NCBI GenBank assembly: GCA_902557575.1 | Contig: CACEAR010000001.1 | Location: 406,674-470,673, forward strand | Length of the DNA: 64,000 nt | Direction of reading: 5' to 3' | Source of the DNA: an uncultured SAR86 cluster bacterium | GTDB taxonomy: Bacteria > Pseudomonadota > Gammaproteobacteria > Magnimaribacterales > D2472 | In this document: one piece after another, positions 14,783 through 40,080 of the stretch | How positions within the stretch are numbered: position 1 is the first letter of the stretch | How the letters are laid out: each line of letters begins with the position of its first letter | Program-made: the position numbers and the translations under genes | Notes under the pieces: model-generated | The model's database searches: none | What the model saw: only the letters and a program-made list of their open reading frames with translations | What the model was told of the DNA's origin: nothing

Positions 14783-16876
14783 ATGGCTAGAGAAACTGAA
14801 TTAAGTAAATATAGAAATATCGGTATTTGTGCTCACGTTGATGCAGGTAAGACTACAACAACGGAAAGAGTGCTTTTCTACACAGGTCTATCTCATAAGA
14901 TAGGAGAAGTTCATGATGGTGCAGCTACTATGGACTGGATGGAGCAAGAGCAAGAGAGAGGTATAACAATTACCTCTGCTGCAACTACTTGTTTTTGGAG
15001 CGGAATGGAGCAACAGTTTCCAAAGCATAGAATAAATATTATTGATACACCGGGACACGTTGATTTCACAATTGAAGTTGAAAGATCCTTAAGAGTTTTA
15101 GATGGTGCAGTAGTTGTGTTTTGTGGTACATCTGGTGTTGAGCCTCAATCAGAAACTGTTTGGCGTCAATGTAATAGATATGAAGTACCTAGAATTGTTT
15201 TTGTTAACAAAATGGATAGAGCTGGTGCTGATTTTGAAAGAGTCGTTGATCAAGTAAGAGAAAGACTTGGATCAACAGTGGTTCCCATACAATTGAATAT
15301 AGGCGCTGAGGACGATTTTAAAGGCGTTGTAGATTTAATTAGAATGAAAGCAATTTACTGGAATGAAGATGACCAAGGCCTTACTTTTGACCTTGAAGAA
15401 ATTCCAGAGGATCTTAAAGCTAGATGTGATGAGCTAAGAGAGCAGATGTTAGAGACAGCTGCTGAGGCAAATGAAGAATTGATGGAAGCTTATCTTGAGA
15501 GTGGAGAGCTTACAGAAGATCAAATAAGAGAAGGACTAAGATTGAGGACTCTCAACAATGAAATAGTTCTTGCTATGTGTGGTTCTGCATTTAAAAACAA
15601 AGGTGTTCAAGCGGTGCTTGACGCGGTGATTGAGTTTTTGCCGGCTCCAAATGAAGTTGCAGCAATTCAGGGTGTCCTTCCAGGTGAGGAAGAAAAAACT
15701 GACTCTAGGTCTTCTTCAGATGATGAGCCATTCTCAGCTTTAGCTTTTAAAATAGCTACAGATCCATTTGTAGGAACATTAACATTTATCAGAGTTTACT
15801 CTGGTGTTCTATCCGTTGGTGATGGAGTGGTCAATTCAACACGAAGCAAAAAAGAGCGTGTTGGAAGAATGGTGCAAATGCATTCTAACAGCAGAAATGA
15901 AATCAAAGAGATCCGAGCTGGAGATATTGCTGCCTGTATTGGCCTTAAAGATATTACTACTGGTGATACCCTATGCGACACGAAAGATCAGATAATTCTT
16001 GAAAAAATGGACTTTCCAGAGCCAGTTATTTCTGTAGCTGTGGAACCAAAATCTAAGCCAGACCAAGAGAAAATGTCATTAGCTCTTCAAAAACTAGCTA
16101 AAGAGGATCCTTCTTTTAGAGTTCATACAGACGAAGAATCGGGCCAAACAATTATTTCTGGAATGGGAGAACTTCATTTAGACGTTCTAGTCGATAGAAT
16201 GAAAAGAGAGTTTTCTGTTGAAGCTAATATTGGTAAACCTCAAGTTGCCTACAGAGAGACTATTAAAGAAACAATAGATATTGAAGGTAAATTTGTTCGT
16301 CAGAGTGGTGGTAAAGGGCAATATGGCCATGTTTGGCTAAAGTTAGAGCCTTTGGGTCTTGATGATGACTACGAATTTGTCGACGAAATAGTTGGTGGAG
16401 TAGTACCAAAAGAGTACATTCCTGCTGTCGATAAGGGAATTCAAGAACAAATGCAAAATGGTGTAGTTGCCGGTTATCCATTACTAGCTTTAAAAGCAAC
16501 ACTATATGATGGCTCTTATCACGATGTCGACTCAAGTGAGATGGCATTTAAAATCGCCGGGTCTATGGCTTTAAAAGAAGGTGCACTTAAAGCAAAACCA
16601 GTTATCCTTGAACCAATTATGAAAGTTGAAGTAGTAACTCCTGAAGAGCATATGGGAGATGTAGTTGGTGATTTAAACAGAAGAAGAGGAATAATTTTAG
16701 GAATGGATGAGATACCTTCAGGTAAAACTGTTCAATCAGAGGTTCCTTTATCAGAGATGTTTGGTTATGCAACAGATTTAAGGTCTCAAACCCAAGGAAG
16801 AGCGAGTTTTTCAATGGAATTTCTTAAATATGCAGACGTTCCATCAAGCATTGCAGAAGAGCTAAAAACGGCTTAA
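14783..16876 (+). CDS. fusA: Elongation factor G
   Basis: [36 protein letters not shown]. Confidence 0.99.
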
Positions 16877-16907
16877 TTTTTTTATTAAAATAAATATTGT
16901 TTTTTTG

Positions 16908-16944
16908 TTGACATATTAGGCTCTAGAGACCTAAAATACGCCAC
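16908..16944 (+). promoter_or_regulatory. Sigma70 promoter of the S10 cluster with GC-rich discriminator
   Basis: TTGACA(16908-16913)-N18-TAAAAT(16932-16937)-ACGCCAC. Confidence 0.75.
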
Positions 16945-16993
16945 ATTTTGCATTTTGCGAGATATTTTTAATAGAGGAATTTTAGTTTAAATA

Positions 16994-17305
16994 ATGGAAA
17001 ATCAGGCTATAAGAATAAGACTAAAAGCTTTTGACTATAGACTTATTGATGCCTCTACTAGACAAATCGTAGAAACCGCAAAAAAGACAGGCGCAGTGGT
17101 AAAAGGTCCGATTCCACTGCCTGTTAAAAAAGAGAGGACCACTATATTGATTTCGCCGCATAAAGATAAAGATGCTAGAGATCAATATGAAATAAGAACT
17201 TATAAAAGGCTCTTAGATATTATTAAGCCAACAGATAAAACTGTTGATGCATTAATGAAACTAGATTTATCTGCAGGTGTTGATGTGCAGATAAGCATTA
17301 GCTAA
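16994..17305 (+). CDS. rpsJ: 30S ribosomal protein S10
   Basis: [33 protein letters not shown]. Confidence 0.99.
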
Positions 17306-17307
17306 GA

Positions 17308-17349
17308 GTAAACGCGTAAGCGGCCATAGAGGGTTTTAAGCCCCGTAAT
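17308..17349 (+). ncRNA. Candidate cis-regulatory RNA mimicking 23S rRNA H18-H20 (putative L4/L24-binding r-leader) in the rpsJ-rplC spacer
   Basis: AAA-CGC-GTAA-GCG-GCCATAGA-GGG-TTTTAA-GC-CCC-GTA; 20 of 34 nt G+C over 17313-17346; architecture matches rRNA GGAA-stem-GNRA-stem-GCGAUACA-GGGUGACAGCCCCGUA (from memory). Confidence 0.7.
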
Positions 17350-17361
17350 AAGGAGAATAAA

Positions 17362-17988
17362 TTGAGTTTAGGCTTAATTGGAAAAAAATCGGGAATGTCT
17401 AGGGTCTTCCAAGAAGATGGAGACTCAATTCCAGTATCTATTGTTTCTGTATTTGGTAACTATGTCGCAGGTATCAAAACGAAAGAATCTGACGGTTACG
17501 ACGCTGTTCTTGTCTCAAAAACTGAAAACAAAAAAAATCGCTCTAAATCACAAAAAGAGTTTTTCGCTAAAGTAAATGTTACTCCTGGAACACTCAATGA
17601 ATTTAAGTTAAGTGAGAATTCTGATCGAAACATTGGTGATCATCTTACAGCAGACCTATTTGAAGTGGGACAACATGTTGATGTAACTGGAACATCTAAG
17701 GGTAAAGGATATGCCGGAGTTATAAAAAGGCATAACTTTAAGATGCAAGATGCTACTCATGGTAATTCACTATCCCATAGAGCACATGGATCTATAGGAC
17801 AATGTCAGACTCCTGGAAGAGTATGGAAGGGTAAAAAGATGTCTGGTCACATGGGAAATGAAAGAAAAACTATTCAAAACTTAGAAATCATCAATGTTGA
17901 TGTTGAAAATAATCTTCTATTTATTAAGGGAGCTATACCAGGCTTTAATGGCTCAAAAGTAACAATCAAACCATCGATTAAGAAATGA
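17362..17988 (+). CDS. rplC: 50S ribosomal protein L3 (TTG start)
   Basis: GLIGKKSGMS, SKGKGYAGVIKRHNF, HGNSLSHRAHGSIG; SD AGGAG at 17351-17355. Confidence 0.98.
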   Translation: MSLGLIGKKSGMSRVFQEDGDSIPVSIVSVFGNYVAGIKTKESDGYDAVLVSKTENKKNRSKSQKEFFAKVNVTPGTLNEFKLSENSDRNIGDHLTADLFEVGQHVDVTGTSKGKGYAGVIKRHNFKMQDATHGNSLSHRAHGSIGQCQTPGRVWKGKKMSGHMGNERKTIQNLEIINVDVENNLLFIKGAIPGFNGSKVTIKPSIKK

Positions 17989-18596
17989 AGTTAAGCGTAT
18001 TGTCCACATCAAAAAGTAAGAAAGAAGATATCGTTCTTTCCGATGCTTTTGTTAAAGACTATAACGAATCTTTAGTTCATCAAGCAGTTGTAACCTATCT
18101 TGCTGGCATGAGACAGGGTTCTCATAAGCAGAAGAACAGATCTGAAGTAAGAGGCGGTGGAAAGAAGCCATATAGACAAAAAGGAACTGGTAGAGCAAGA
18201 GCTGGAACCATTAGGAGTCCGATTTGGAGAGGTGGAGGAGTTACATTTGCTTCAAGACCCAGAGATTATTCAAAAAAAATAAATAAGAAAATGTATAAAG
18301 CTGCATTGAGGTCAATTTTTTCTGAGCTTCTCAGACAAGAAAAGCTTATTGCAATAGAGCATCCAAAAATAAAGAATCCAAAAACAAAGGAAATGGTAAG
18401 TTTCTTATCTAAACTATCGTTAGAGAATGTACTAATTATCACTGATGAAATTGATAAGAATTTACATTTAGCATCTCGAAACATTCCTCATGTGAATGTT
18501 GTCACAACCGCTGAAATTAATCCGGTTATGTTGCTTAAGCCACATAAGGTTGCAATTACACCTGCAGCTTTTAAGAAGATAGAGGAGCTTATCTAA
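17985..18596 (+). CDS. rplD: 50S ribosomal protein L4
   Basis: KPYRQKGTGRARAGTIRSPIWRGGG. Confidence 0.99.
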   Translation: MKLSVLSTSKSKKEDIVLSDAFVKDYNESLVHQAVVTYLAGMRQGSHKQKNRSEVRGGGKKPYRQKGTGRARAGTIRSPIWRGGGVTFASRPRDYSKKINKKMYKAALRSIFSELLRQEKLIAIEHPKIKNPKTKEMVSFLSKLSLENVLIITDEIDKNLHLASRNIPHVNVVTTAEINPVMLLKPHKVAITPAAFKKIEELI

Positions 18597-21627: not shown

Positions 21628-21877
21628 GAATCCAAGAATATTATCAGGAGTTGTTGTAAGCAATAAAGCTGATAAAACTATCACCGTTAAAGTGGAAAGA
21701 AAAGTTAAACATCCTTTATATGGAAAGATAATGAGAAGATCTACTAAAGTTCATGCCCATGACGAAAACAATGTTGCAAATATCGGCGATTTCGTATCAG
21801 TAAAAGAGTGTAAGCCTTTTTCAAAAACAAAGACTTGGATTTTAGAGGAATCAGATTCAAGTGGAGGCGATTCCTAA
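21617..21877 (+). CDS. rpsQ: 30S ribosomal protein S17
   Basis: [23 protein letters not shown]; exact start uncertain (21611 or 21617). Confidence 0.97.
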
Positions 21878-22245
21878 TGATACAAATGCAATCAATACTT
21901 AATATTGCTGACAATAGCGGAGCTAGATCTGTGATGTGCATAAAGGTCCTTGGGGGCTCCAAGAGACGCTATGCAAACGTCGGGGACATTATTAAGGTTG
22001 CTGTTAGAGAAGCTATACCTACTGGCAAAGTAAAAAAAGGACAAGTGGTAAATGCTCTTGTGGTCAGAACAAAGAAAGGAGTAAGAAGAAGAGATGGATC
22101 ATTAATAAAGTTTGATGAAAATGCTGCAGTTCTTCTTAACCAGCAAAACGCACCTATTGGTACAAGAGTTTTTGGACCAGTTACTAGAGAGTTGCGGTCT
22201 GGTAATTTTATGAAAATCTTATCACTTGCACCGGAGGTTCTTTAA
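21877..22245 (+). CDS. rplN: 50S ribosomal protein L14
   Basis: [28 protein letters not shown]. Confidence 0.99.
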
Positions 22246-22572
22246 ATGAAAAGTAATGTAAGAACAAGACTTAAAACTGGTGATGAGGTTGTAGTTATTG
22301 CAGGTAGAGATGTGGGTAAGACTGGAACGATTACAAGTATCAAGAAAAATAAAGCTTTTGTTACAGGTATTAATATTGTGAAAAAGCATACCAAGCCAAA
22401 TCCTCAGTTAGGGATTACCGGCGGGATTGTTGAACAAGAATCACCAATTGATTTATCAAATATACAAATATGGGACTCAAAAACAAAAAAGGGTTCTAGG
22501 ATCTCAATGAAAATAGATGAGAAGACAGGGAAGAAAGAAAGACTTAACAAAAAAACAGGAAAAGTAGTATAA
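22246..22572 (+). CDS. rplX: 50S ribosomal protein L24
   Basis: KOW GDEVVVIAGRDVGKTG, ESPIDLSN. Confidence 0.98.
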   Translation: MKSNVRTRLKTGDEVVVIAGRDVGKTGTITSIKKNKAFVTGINIVKKHTKPNPQLGITGGIVEQESPIDLSNIQIWDSKTKKGSRISMKIDEKTGKKERLNKKTGKVV

Positions 22573-39729: not shown

Positions 39730-40080
39730 TGGTGGAGGCGGCGGGAATTGAACCCGCGTCCGTTAGTCCTTCAACCTCACTTCTACATGCTTAGCTCATT
39801 CTATTATCATTTGTCTTGATAACCCGAAGAGCAGGACATCAAGATAGATCTCGATTTAAGTTTCATCAAGTTATGCTCGAGAAACAAAACTTAACTAGGC
39901 TACGTAAATGACTGCTGTTTCAGACCGTAACCATTCTTTACAGCAGGTTTAGCTATTTAAGCAGCTAAAGCGTAGTTGTCGTTATTTGCAACTAAAATTT
40001 TGAAGTAATTTTTACAAGAAAACTTCATTCTTGACATGCGCTTTGGAATCCAATAAAAACGTCGAATCCTATTCGCCCCC
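39730..40080 (-). ncRNA. ssrA: tmRNA; tag peptide (A)ANNDNYALAA encoded at 39989-39957
   Basis: 5' GGGGGCG pairs with 3' CGCCTCC-ACCA including G3-U; GGATTCGAC; T-loop GGTTCAATTCC; GCA AAT AAC GAC AAC TAC GCT TTA GCT GCT TAA. Confidence 0.97.

Follow-up and report, generated by a model that had tools for sequence, protein, structure and literature searches.

A 23S rRNA-like element between rpsJ and rplC in SAR86 and other gammaproteobacteria as a candidate translational operator of ribosomal-protein genes

The window analyzed here, that is, the whole stretch of 64,000 nucleotides (nt) from contig CACEAR010000001.1 of an uncultured SAR86 cluster bacterium, carries the S10 operon of ribosomal-protein (r-protein) genes. 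The L3 protein of the host is 74% identical to that of SAR86A and the G+C content is about 36%; because of the L3 identity, we regard the host as a SAR86-clade gammaproteobacterium. We studied the spacer between rpsJ (S10) and rplC (L3). The comparisons described below confirm, at the level of sequence and predicted structure, that this spacer is a mimic of the base of H18, H19 and H20 of 23S ribosomal RNA (rRNA). In our view, the element most likely serves as a feedback switch of r-protein synthesis that has not been described before.

The features of the locus are listed in Table 1. The RNA of the spacer reads GAGUAAA-CGC-GUAA-GCG-GC-C-AUA-G-A-GGG-UUUUAA-GC-CCC-GUA-AUA-AGGAG-AAUAAA-UUG, and 20 of the 34 nt at 17313-17346 are G or C. 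Direct reading gave the same spacer layout, the same G+C island and the same coordinates of the Shine-Dalgarno (SD) sequence and the UUG start codon as the initial annotation of this DNA. All the junctions from rplC/rplD through rpsS/rplV overlap or are at most 2 nt long, and the rpsJ-rplC spacer is the sole long spacer of the run. The core pattern of the element occurred once in the window and in none of 100 shuffled sequences. A second copy, for example before rplX or rplD, was found neither in the window nor in any sampled locus.

Table 1. Genes and RNA features around the rpsJ-rplC spacer (positions in the window)
Feature	Positions	Strand	Remarks
Promoter-like TTGACA-18-TAAAAT ahead of rpsJ	16908-16937	+	11 of 12 consensus matches; consensus match alone
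rpsJ (S10)	16994-17305	+	Open reading frame (ORF); as query matched S10 genes at 65-89% identity
rpsJ-rplC spacer	17306-17361		56 nt
Whole rRNA-mimic element	17307-17351	+	Extent of match to the 23S-only covariance model R1, model positions 1-53
AAA, equivalent of junction strand J18/19 (23S A296-A297)	17310-17312	+	Aligns to GAA of the 23S model
H19-like hairpin CGC-GUAA-GCG	17313-17322	+	Of rRNA H19, only the three basal pairs are retained
Junction strand J19/20, GC-C-AUA-G-A	17323-17330	+	Pseudoknot 5' half 17323-17324; lone pair C17325:G17329 closing AUA triloop; A17330
H20-like hairpin	17331-17344	+	GGG/CCC stem, 17331-17333 with 17342-17344; loop 17334-17339
Pseudoknot 3' half GC	17340-17341	+	Inside the H20-like hairpin
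GUA, equivalent of junction strand J20/18 (23S G338-A340)	17345-17347	+
SD sequence AGGAG of rplC	17351-17355	+	3 nt past the mimic
rplC (L3)	17362-17988	+	UUG start at 17362; ORF and PF00297; would be the directly controlled gene
rplD (uL4)	17985-18596	+	Start overlaps rplC stop (ATGA)
rplX (uL24)	22246-22572	+	Within the contiguous spc cluster

In 23S rRNA, nt 281-359 form the H18/H19/H20 three-way junction. It is the primary site for uL4 and uL24, which alone are its specific protein partners (PMC6426284). This report supports the claim of the initial annotation that the H18-H20 fragment binds L4 and L24. The E. coli 23S string that had been quoted there was also exact, with a 100% match in the 23S rRNA of 5426 of 5426 complete E. 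coli genomes. We built a covariance model, R1, of the H18 base, H19 and H20 from 13 fragments of 23S rRNA of alpha-, beta- and gammaproteobacteria, Bacillota and Actinomycetota. Twelve of the fragments came from a homology search with E. coli 23S rRNA and the remaining one, of Aeromonas (H160), came through a BLAST search with a spacer. Among the 13 fragments, covariation is seen in each of H18, H19 and H20, in the pseudoknot (317-318/333-334) and in the lone pair (319:323); H20, the lone pair and the pseudoknot are paired in 100% of them.

When both strands of the whole window were searched with R1, whose E-values are rough, the spacer element ranked first with 15.2 bits (E 0.018); the runner-up had an E-value of 0.8. 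Over 98 loci (418 kb), the only R1 matches at E<=1 were 25 elements, each in an rpsJ-rplC spacer. The copies of pseudomonads scored 45-56 bits (E 1e-12 to 1e-16) and aligned without a gap over all 53 model positions. The scores were 15-33 bits for the SAR86 copies and 15-19 bits for those of Halieaceae. We also searched a plasmid collection of 7.3 Gb (PLSDB), which includes many 23S genes, by BLAST. The best match of the 50-nt core of Pseudomonas aeruginosa was H19-H20 of Burkholderia 23S rRNA (38 of 42 nt, E 3e-7), and its coordinates coincided with those of the homology match obtained with E. coli 23S rRNA. The spacer of the window itself had no significant match in this collection; only the longer pseudomonad copy reached significance. 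The detection of the spacer by a model made of 23S sequences only and the Burkholderia match of the P. aeruginosa homologue bear out the H18-H20 mimicry first proposed from the window alone.

PLSDB contains 'plasmid' records (NZ_CP064203.1, NZ_AP026896.1, NZ_OL790696.1, NZ_CP119142.1 and others) that are whole chromosomes of 2-5 Mb. These records carry rRNA operons and full r-protein clusters, and their labels are an annotation error of the collection.

Metagenome contigs were scanned for the pattern AUAGAGGGU-N3-6-AGCCCCGUA, and at least 120 loci were found. About 113 of these read ...CUGGAAAGG..GCC-AUAGAGGGUGAnAGCCCCGUA-GGCGAAA..., and all 12 pattern loci that were sampled were genes for large-subunit (LSU) rRNA of Bacteria, Archaea or Eukarya. 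Judged from these strings, the core is a universal LSU rRNA sequence. Among the matches listed, four were not rRNA, namely, two SAR86 spacers and the loci L135 and L155 described below. We considered whether the spacer is a fragment of an LSU rRNA gene or pseudogene and rejected this reading: no Rfam LSU match is present in the window, and the homology covers only 45-53 nt flanked by rpsJ and rplC. A scan with Rfam found no rRNA gene in the 64-kb window, and the element is present in complete isolate genomes.

The distribution of the element was determined on sampled loci. Species-representative genomes were scanned with the S10 protein of the window, and 80 loci were obtained. All 13 of the closest SAR86 genomes, with S10 84-89% identical, have CGGCCAUAGAGGGU-(2-5 nt)-AGCCCCGUA in the rpsJ-rplC spacer, followed in every genome by AGGAG and a UUG start. 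The 25-nt core is unchanged in 15 further SAR86 sequences of which the L3 is merely 60-72% identical to that of the window, whereas the SAR86 copies differ in their flanks and in the loops of H19 and H20. In L135 and L155 the core is followed by CACUGA(A)GAGG and then by the AUG that opens L3 (MAIGLVG). L135 belongs to Halieaceae, its L3 being 92-96% identical to those of Halioglobus and Seongchinamella, and L155 represents a separate gammaproteobacterial lineage. The complete genome of Halioglobus maricola has the element, as does a contig of which the L3 is identical to that of Parahalioglobus.

The initial annotation had mentioned a similar string in Pseudomonas, and this was right. The spacer of P. 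aeruginosa reads GUCGUGU-AA-CGCUCUGAAAUGGGCG-GCC-AUA-G-C-GGGU-GAA-AGCCCC-GU-ACAC-UCAAGAGG-N8-AUG, and a near-identical element occurs in Stutzerimonas, Azomonas, Thiopseudomonas, Entomomonas and two more pseudomonads. The family therefore spans one SAR86 clade, Halieaceae, the L155 gammaproteobacterium and Pseudomonadaceae. Two public L3 calls of the Pseudomonas type, P0241 (290 aa) and P0242 (307 aa), are 80-95 residues too long at the N-terminus. Presumably these calls read through the rpsJ-rplC spacer, so that the element can hide in mis-called ORFs.

We aligned 26 elements of the four lineages with MAFFT (alignment A1). One or two stems are offset in A1 (L001, L155), and this lowers, not raises, the pair counts. 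When the structure derived from rRNA was laid on A1, 96.2% of the cells were paired, versus 28-61% when the 3' partners were slid by 1-3 columns. The covariation score was 0.143, versus 0.051 in shuffled alignments, none of 500 of which scored as high, and six pairs change on both sides. Conservation and covariation in related spacers, which had been named as a test in the initial annotation, were thus found. The H19 pairs (columns 24-53, 25-52 and 26-51) are 93.9% paired and show changes from C-G to U-A and from G-C to U-A. The helix at the base of H18 also shows compensatory changes, being GUGU/ACAC in Pseudomonadaceae and Halieaceae, and UUUU/AAAA or UUGU/AUAA in most SAR86.

The junction strands, the pseudoknot and the H20 stem hardly vary. 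The AA ahead of the H19 stem is present in 26 of 26 members, the J19/20 strand is the same in all of them save for A or C at its last position, and the H20 stem and the GC of the pseudoknot are likewise unchanged. The GUA is fixed in all members and in all 13 of the 23S fragments. The initial annotation had regarded the C:G of the lone pair as a compensatory swap. This claim did not hold, because C:G is the commonest natural state of this pair in 23S rRNA (8 of 13 fragments). The claim of a GNRA hairpin at H19 held for the window, where the loop is GUAA. It did not extend to the SAR86 relatives, in which the H19 loop varies in sequence and length; a GNRA loop is conserved only in Pseudomonadaceae.

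Compared with H18-H20 of 23S rRNA, the mimic shares the junction strands (AA, GCC-AUA-G-A and GUA), the GC/GC pseudoknot, the lone pair, the H20 stem and the foot of H19. The pseudomonad copies also retain the 5' strand of H19, the GNRA loop and the base of H18. The mimic differs from the rRNA in that it lies outside any rRNA gene, its H18 is cut to 0-4 bp, and the distal part of H19 is deleted or replaced. That is, H19 is shortened in SAR86, and in Halieaceae a longer and quite different hairpin stands in its place. The H20 loop, which is U-GAN-A in the proteobacterial and actinomycete 23S fragments and UAANA in two of Bacillota, is free to vary in the mimic, with an arbitrary 2-5 nt between U and A. 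The drifting parts, distal H19 and the H20 loop, are those that touch other regions of the ribosome. This division into conserved and drifting parts is the pattern that would be expected if selection acted on the protein contacts alone and not on the other contacts within the ribosome.

The CGC/GCG stem of SAR86 equals the three outer H19 pairs (CGCUCUGGAAAGUGCG) of Burkholderia and Acinetobacter 23S rRNA. A U before the AA is common to all the mimic lineages, whereas a conserved G stands there in most 23S rRNA. The identity of the stem and the shared U suggest that the element had a single origin by copying and was then trimmed.

In the pseudomonads (L202, L204-L207, L209 and L232) a small hairpin lies right after the rpsJ stop codon, ahead of the mimic. 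Its sequence differs in each genus and it is always formed (UGCC-UUC-GGCA, AAACC-N-GGUUU, CAGCC-N7-GGCUG). This hairpin may insulate the mimic from terminating ribosomes.

The position of the element relative to the ribosome-binding site is fixed. The SD sequence begins 3-9 nt past the invariant GUA in every member of the family, and the spacing from SD to start is 6-9 nt. The start codon of rplC is UUG in 16 of 16 SAR86 members and AUG in the other lineages. In the window, H20 is followed by GUAAUAAGGAG. No terminator-like site was found in 16700-17600, and the reading of the element as a terminator or attenuator was rejected for this reason. In the minimum free energy (MFE) structures of several relatives the closing helix runs into the SD sequence, for example, in L002 (CUUUUGUA/UAUAAAAG) and in Halioglobus (ACCU.../...AGGU).

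Two further pairings were noted in these structures. The Halieaceae spacers L203 (685-695), L135 (4334-4344) and L208 (391-401) share GCAAGACCUGC, about 90 nt 5' of the start codon, which is paired to GAGAGGU, the SD region, in the MFE structure of Halioglobus (L203). One possibility is a lineage-specific anti-SD arm by which the H18-like helix is lengthened. In P. aeruginosa (L202, 733-739 with 799-805) the 5' strand of H18, GUCGUGU, pairs with ACAUGAC over the start codon of rplC. Such a helix would close the element in another way and sequester the AUG. By eye, it is kept in several, not all, pseudomonads, and we do not rely on it.

The element thus has the features by which a leader of r-protein genes (r-leader) is recognized: it is located in an r-protein mRNA next to the ribosome-binding site, it is similar to an rRNA site bound by the product of a downstream gene, and it is conserved with covariation. 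We consider that it probably is a translational operator, at which free uL4, possibly together with uL24, would block the initiation of rplC and the coupled downstream genes. We favor an operator of translation because the SD sequence lies at 3-9 nt, the UUG start of SAR86 is weak, no terminator is present, and the MFE helix runs into the SD sequence. What we infer here is that a protein binds the element, which protein this is, and that the binding represses.

The proposed mechanism is as follows. When uL4 is in excess of free 23S rRNA, it would bind the copy in the mRNA, perhaps cooperatively with uL24. The junction, clamped 3-9 nt 5' of the SD sequence, would occlude or sequester the ribosome-binding site of rplC, and 30S initiation would not occur; the wording 'molecular clamp' has been used for the clamping of the junction by protein (PMC6426284). 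The overlap of rplC and rplD implies translational coupling, through which the repression would pass to rplD and the tightly coupled genes downstream, and rpsJ would be spared.

Several results weigh against this interpretation. The covariation backs only H19 and the base of H18, because the pseudoknot, the lone pair and the H20 stem are invariant in A1 and hence uninformative on the fold. The copy of the window is the most reduced of the family, with a 3-bp H19, almost no H18 pairing and an E-value of about 0.02. R1 represents the 23S rRNA of bacteria other than SAR86, Halieaceae and Pseudomonas. The MFE z-scores of the spacers of the window and its SAR86 relatives were +0.6 to +0.8, that is, no better than those of shuffled sequences. 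The spacers of Halioglobus and P. aeruginosa folded better than shuffled ones (z -3.1 and -2.3), and single-sequence thermodynamics can neither support nor refute the element. Moreover, the rpsJ stop codon of SAR86 lies just 5-7 nt ahead of the element, so terminating ribosomes must melt it. Finally, the distribution is patchy. The other SAR86 clades have spacers of 0-7 nt without the element; the other gamma- and alphaproteobacteria and the Bdellovibrionota of the 80-locus set lack it, as do the sampled loci of Acinetobacter, Aeromonas, Pseudoalteromonas, Legionella, Neisseria and E. coli.

As to the ligand, uL4 binds the 23S 281-359 fragment with an association constant (Ka) of 1.5 per uM and uL24 with one of 0.06 per uM; either protein enhances the binding of the other about 6-fold (PMC6426284). 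In addition, uL4 is the known repressor of the S10 operon in E. coli (PMC3616713, PMC10931766). We favor uL4 because of its higher affinity for the isolated fragment, its established role in the S10 operon, the location of rplD directly after rplC, and the loss in SAR86 of the H18 strands, both of which uL24 contacts and reportedly holds (PMC6426284). A role of uL24 as a co-repressor is plausible, because the binding is cooperative and rplX is co-linear without space for a separate promoter. That is, rpsQ and rplN overlap (21875-21880), so there is no room for a separate promoter ahead of rplX, and the S10 and spc clusters appear to be fused into one unit.

It is also conceivable that uL24 alone reads the operator, through rplX in the fused S10-spc unit, with uL4 uninvolved. 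The rRNA fragment is bound by uL24 too, and through more contacts, rplX is co-linear with no space for a promoter of its own, and J18/19 and J20/18, the strands that uL24 reportedly holds, are both invariant. We nevertheless judge this to be unlikely. The affinity of uL24 for the isolated fragment is about 25-fold below that of uL4, and the H18 strands, which uL24 contacts, have been shortened or have disappeared in SAR86 copies. In other organisms, regulation of this operon by uL4 is established. In addition, only rplC separates rplD from the operator, and rplX is about 5 kb downstream. Quite unlikely, in our opinion, is a functional RNA that senses no protein, such as an mRNA stabilizer, a processing site, an insulator by which rplC is uncoupled from the translation of rpsJ, or a standby site that enhances initiation at the weak start codon. 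A conserved, structured element between two cistrons, preceded in the relatives by an extra variable hairpin, would agree with such a role, but a generic hairpin would suffice for it, and the invariance of the rRNA junction, triloop and pseudoknot and the gapless 53-nt match to 23S rRNA would be left unexplained.

The chance that the copy is bound by another factor that recognizes domain I of 23S rRNA, that is, an assembly helicase, a modification enzyme or an RNase, seems to us very small. Factors such as SrmB are reported to reach this part of the rRNA by way of uL4 and uL24; however, the fragment is reported to be specific for these two proteins only (PMC6426284), and we found no link of such a factor to this operon. 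We give hardly any credence to the idea that a single insertion of rDNA into the spacer left the element behind as a neutral relic. The closeness of the pseudomonad copy to 23S rRNA (38/42 nt) does suggest an origin by copying. However, the core is invariant over lineages whose L3 identity is 50-70%, the pairing of H19 is maintained by compensatory changes, and the element is kept in streamlined SAR86 genomes in which the other junctions of the S10 run are 0-2 nt. In a relic, the core would have to be substituted at the rate of the flanking spacer, which the SAR86 spacers and A1 contradict.

Beyond the translational operator preferred here, we considered a more specific scheme, which we regard as possible yet doubtful. 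In this scheme, a piece of 23S rDNA (about nt 292-343) would have been captured in an ancestral gammaproteobacterial S10 operon and would act as a two-protein sensor that requires cooperative binding of uL4 and uL24, the earliest two proteins to join that rRNA fragment. The synthesis of L3, L4 and the products of the fused S10-spc unit would thereby be tied to the initiation step of 50S assembly, and the streamlined SAR86 would have trimmed the copy to a minimal core of protein contacts. If this were true, the SAR86 core would define the smallest RNA recognized by uL4 and uL24.

The logic of the proposed operator is, by analogy, that of classical r-protein feedback by rRNA mimicry. It shares with the E. 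coli S10 leader the operon, the presumed effector uL4, the competition between 23S domain I and mRNA for free uL4, and the spread of repression from the promoter-proximal cistron by translational coupling. In contrast, the E. coli leader precedes rpsJ, extends over about 170 nt with five hairpins and a terminator, and acts on both transcription and translation; the element described here follows rpsJ, is 45-55 nt long without a terminator, and copies the rRNA sequence itself. According to Stelzl et al. (2003), the E. coli leader reportedly resembles its rRNA site only in three dimensions. Allen et al. (1999) are said to have found that P. aeruginosa has no L4-responsive S10 leader. This is consistent with the statement that the E. 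coli-type S10 leader is absent from Pseudomonadaceae (PMC3616713). The long 5' untranslated region of the E. coli type is not present in the window either: as had been anticipated from the lack of room before rpsJ, the promoter-like site leaves a leader of only about 50 nt, without a terminator.

The S7 operator in the rpsL-rpsG spacer (str) and the S8 operator at rplX-rplE (spc) are also internal to a polycistronic r-protein mRNA (PMC2704228, PMC10931766). Like the element, they mimic the rRNA site of the protein, spare the upstream genes and repress the downstream ones via coupling. They differ in their proteins, rRNA sites and operons, and they are simple irregular hairpins with no three-way junction and pseudoknot. 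The L4 r-leader candidate of Archaeoglobi (Eckert and Weinberg 2020) is a candidate uL4-binding RNA placed directly before rplC-rplD-rplW-rplB (PMC7247131), but it is archaeal, its structure is unrelated, and its authors graded it as doubtful ('?') (PMC7247131). We found no other published candidate for a leader immediately preceding rplC. No Rfam 15 match overlapped the spacer up to E 10 in the window, P. aeruginosa, Halioglobus or L155. A search of full-text literature, which did not extend to subscription-only publications, found no description of the element, of an rpsJ-rplC leader or of uL4/uL24 autoregulation in Pseudomonas. The statement of the initial annotation that it knew of no such described leader agrees with these searches.

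Other rpsJ-rplC spacers also drew our attention. Thiotrichaceae-like and other gammaproteobacteria have spacers of 330-626 nt (L022 562-898, L023 1841-2171, L024 355-980) that share a TATAAT-like box, 'UAUCGUAAGUC' and 'GAUACUGCGAAAA' and have no Rfam match. They look like an internal promoter and a different conserved leader before rplC. Two unrelated gammaproteobacterial metagenome-assembled genomes (L037 357-456, L041 2807-2907) have in common a 100-nt spacer with 'CUAUAAUGAUCGGCUCGCCC' and two G+C-rich hairpins, likewise without an Rfam match, and this is possibly another rplC leader. In Neisseria gonorrhoeae (L218 331-500), at least 170 nt before rplC do not encode the C-terminus of S10. 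This stretch is not the mimic; it has a hairpin (GUCUGAAAGACAGG...CCUGUCCC) and the sequence TTGACT-N17-TATAAT, which strongly resembles a promoter.

Elsewhere in the window, the S10 promoter and rpsJ come straight after fusA, without tufA (16877-16993). The sole tuf gene is at 1083-2273, behind tRNA-Tyr and tRNA-Thr. In four SAR86 contigs the 10 kb upstream of tuf contained birA and no rRNA, where a Pseudomonas-type rrn-tRNA-tufB arrangement had been expected. A gene for tmRNA is located at 39730-40080 on the minus strand (Rfam RF00023, 178 bits).

The element offers a concrete and directly testable answer to the question of S10 operon control in bacteria other than enterics, Vibrio and Pasteurellaceae, and the systems concerned include a genetically tractable pathogen, P. 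aeruginosa, and two abundant marine groups. If our interpretation is true, it would be the most literal rRNA mimic among the r-protein operators, since the pseudomonad copy matches 53 nt without a gap, including the three-way junction and the pseudoknot. The alignment can serve as the seed for a new RNA family. The series from the full copy of Pseudomonas to the trimmed copy of SAR86 would be a natural deletion analysis of what uL4 and uL24 need for recognition. For annotation, the element would account for the survival of the one long spacer of this gene run in streamlined genomes.

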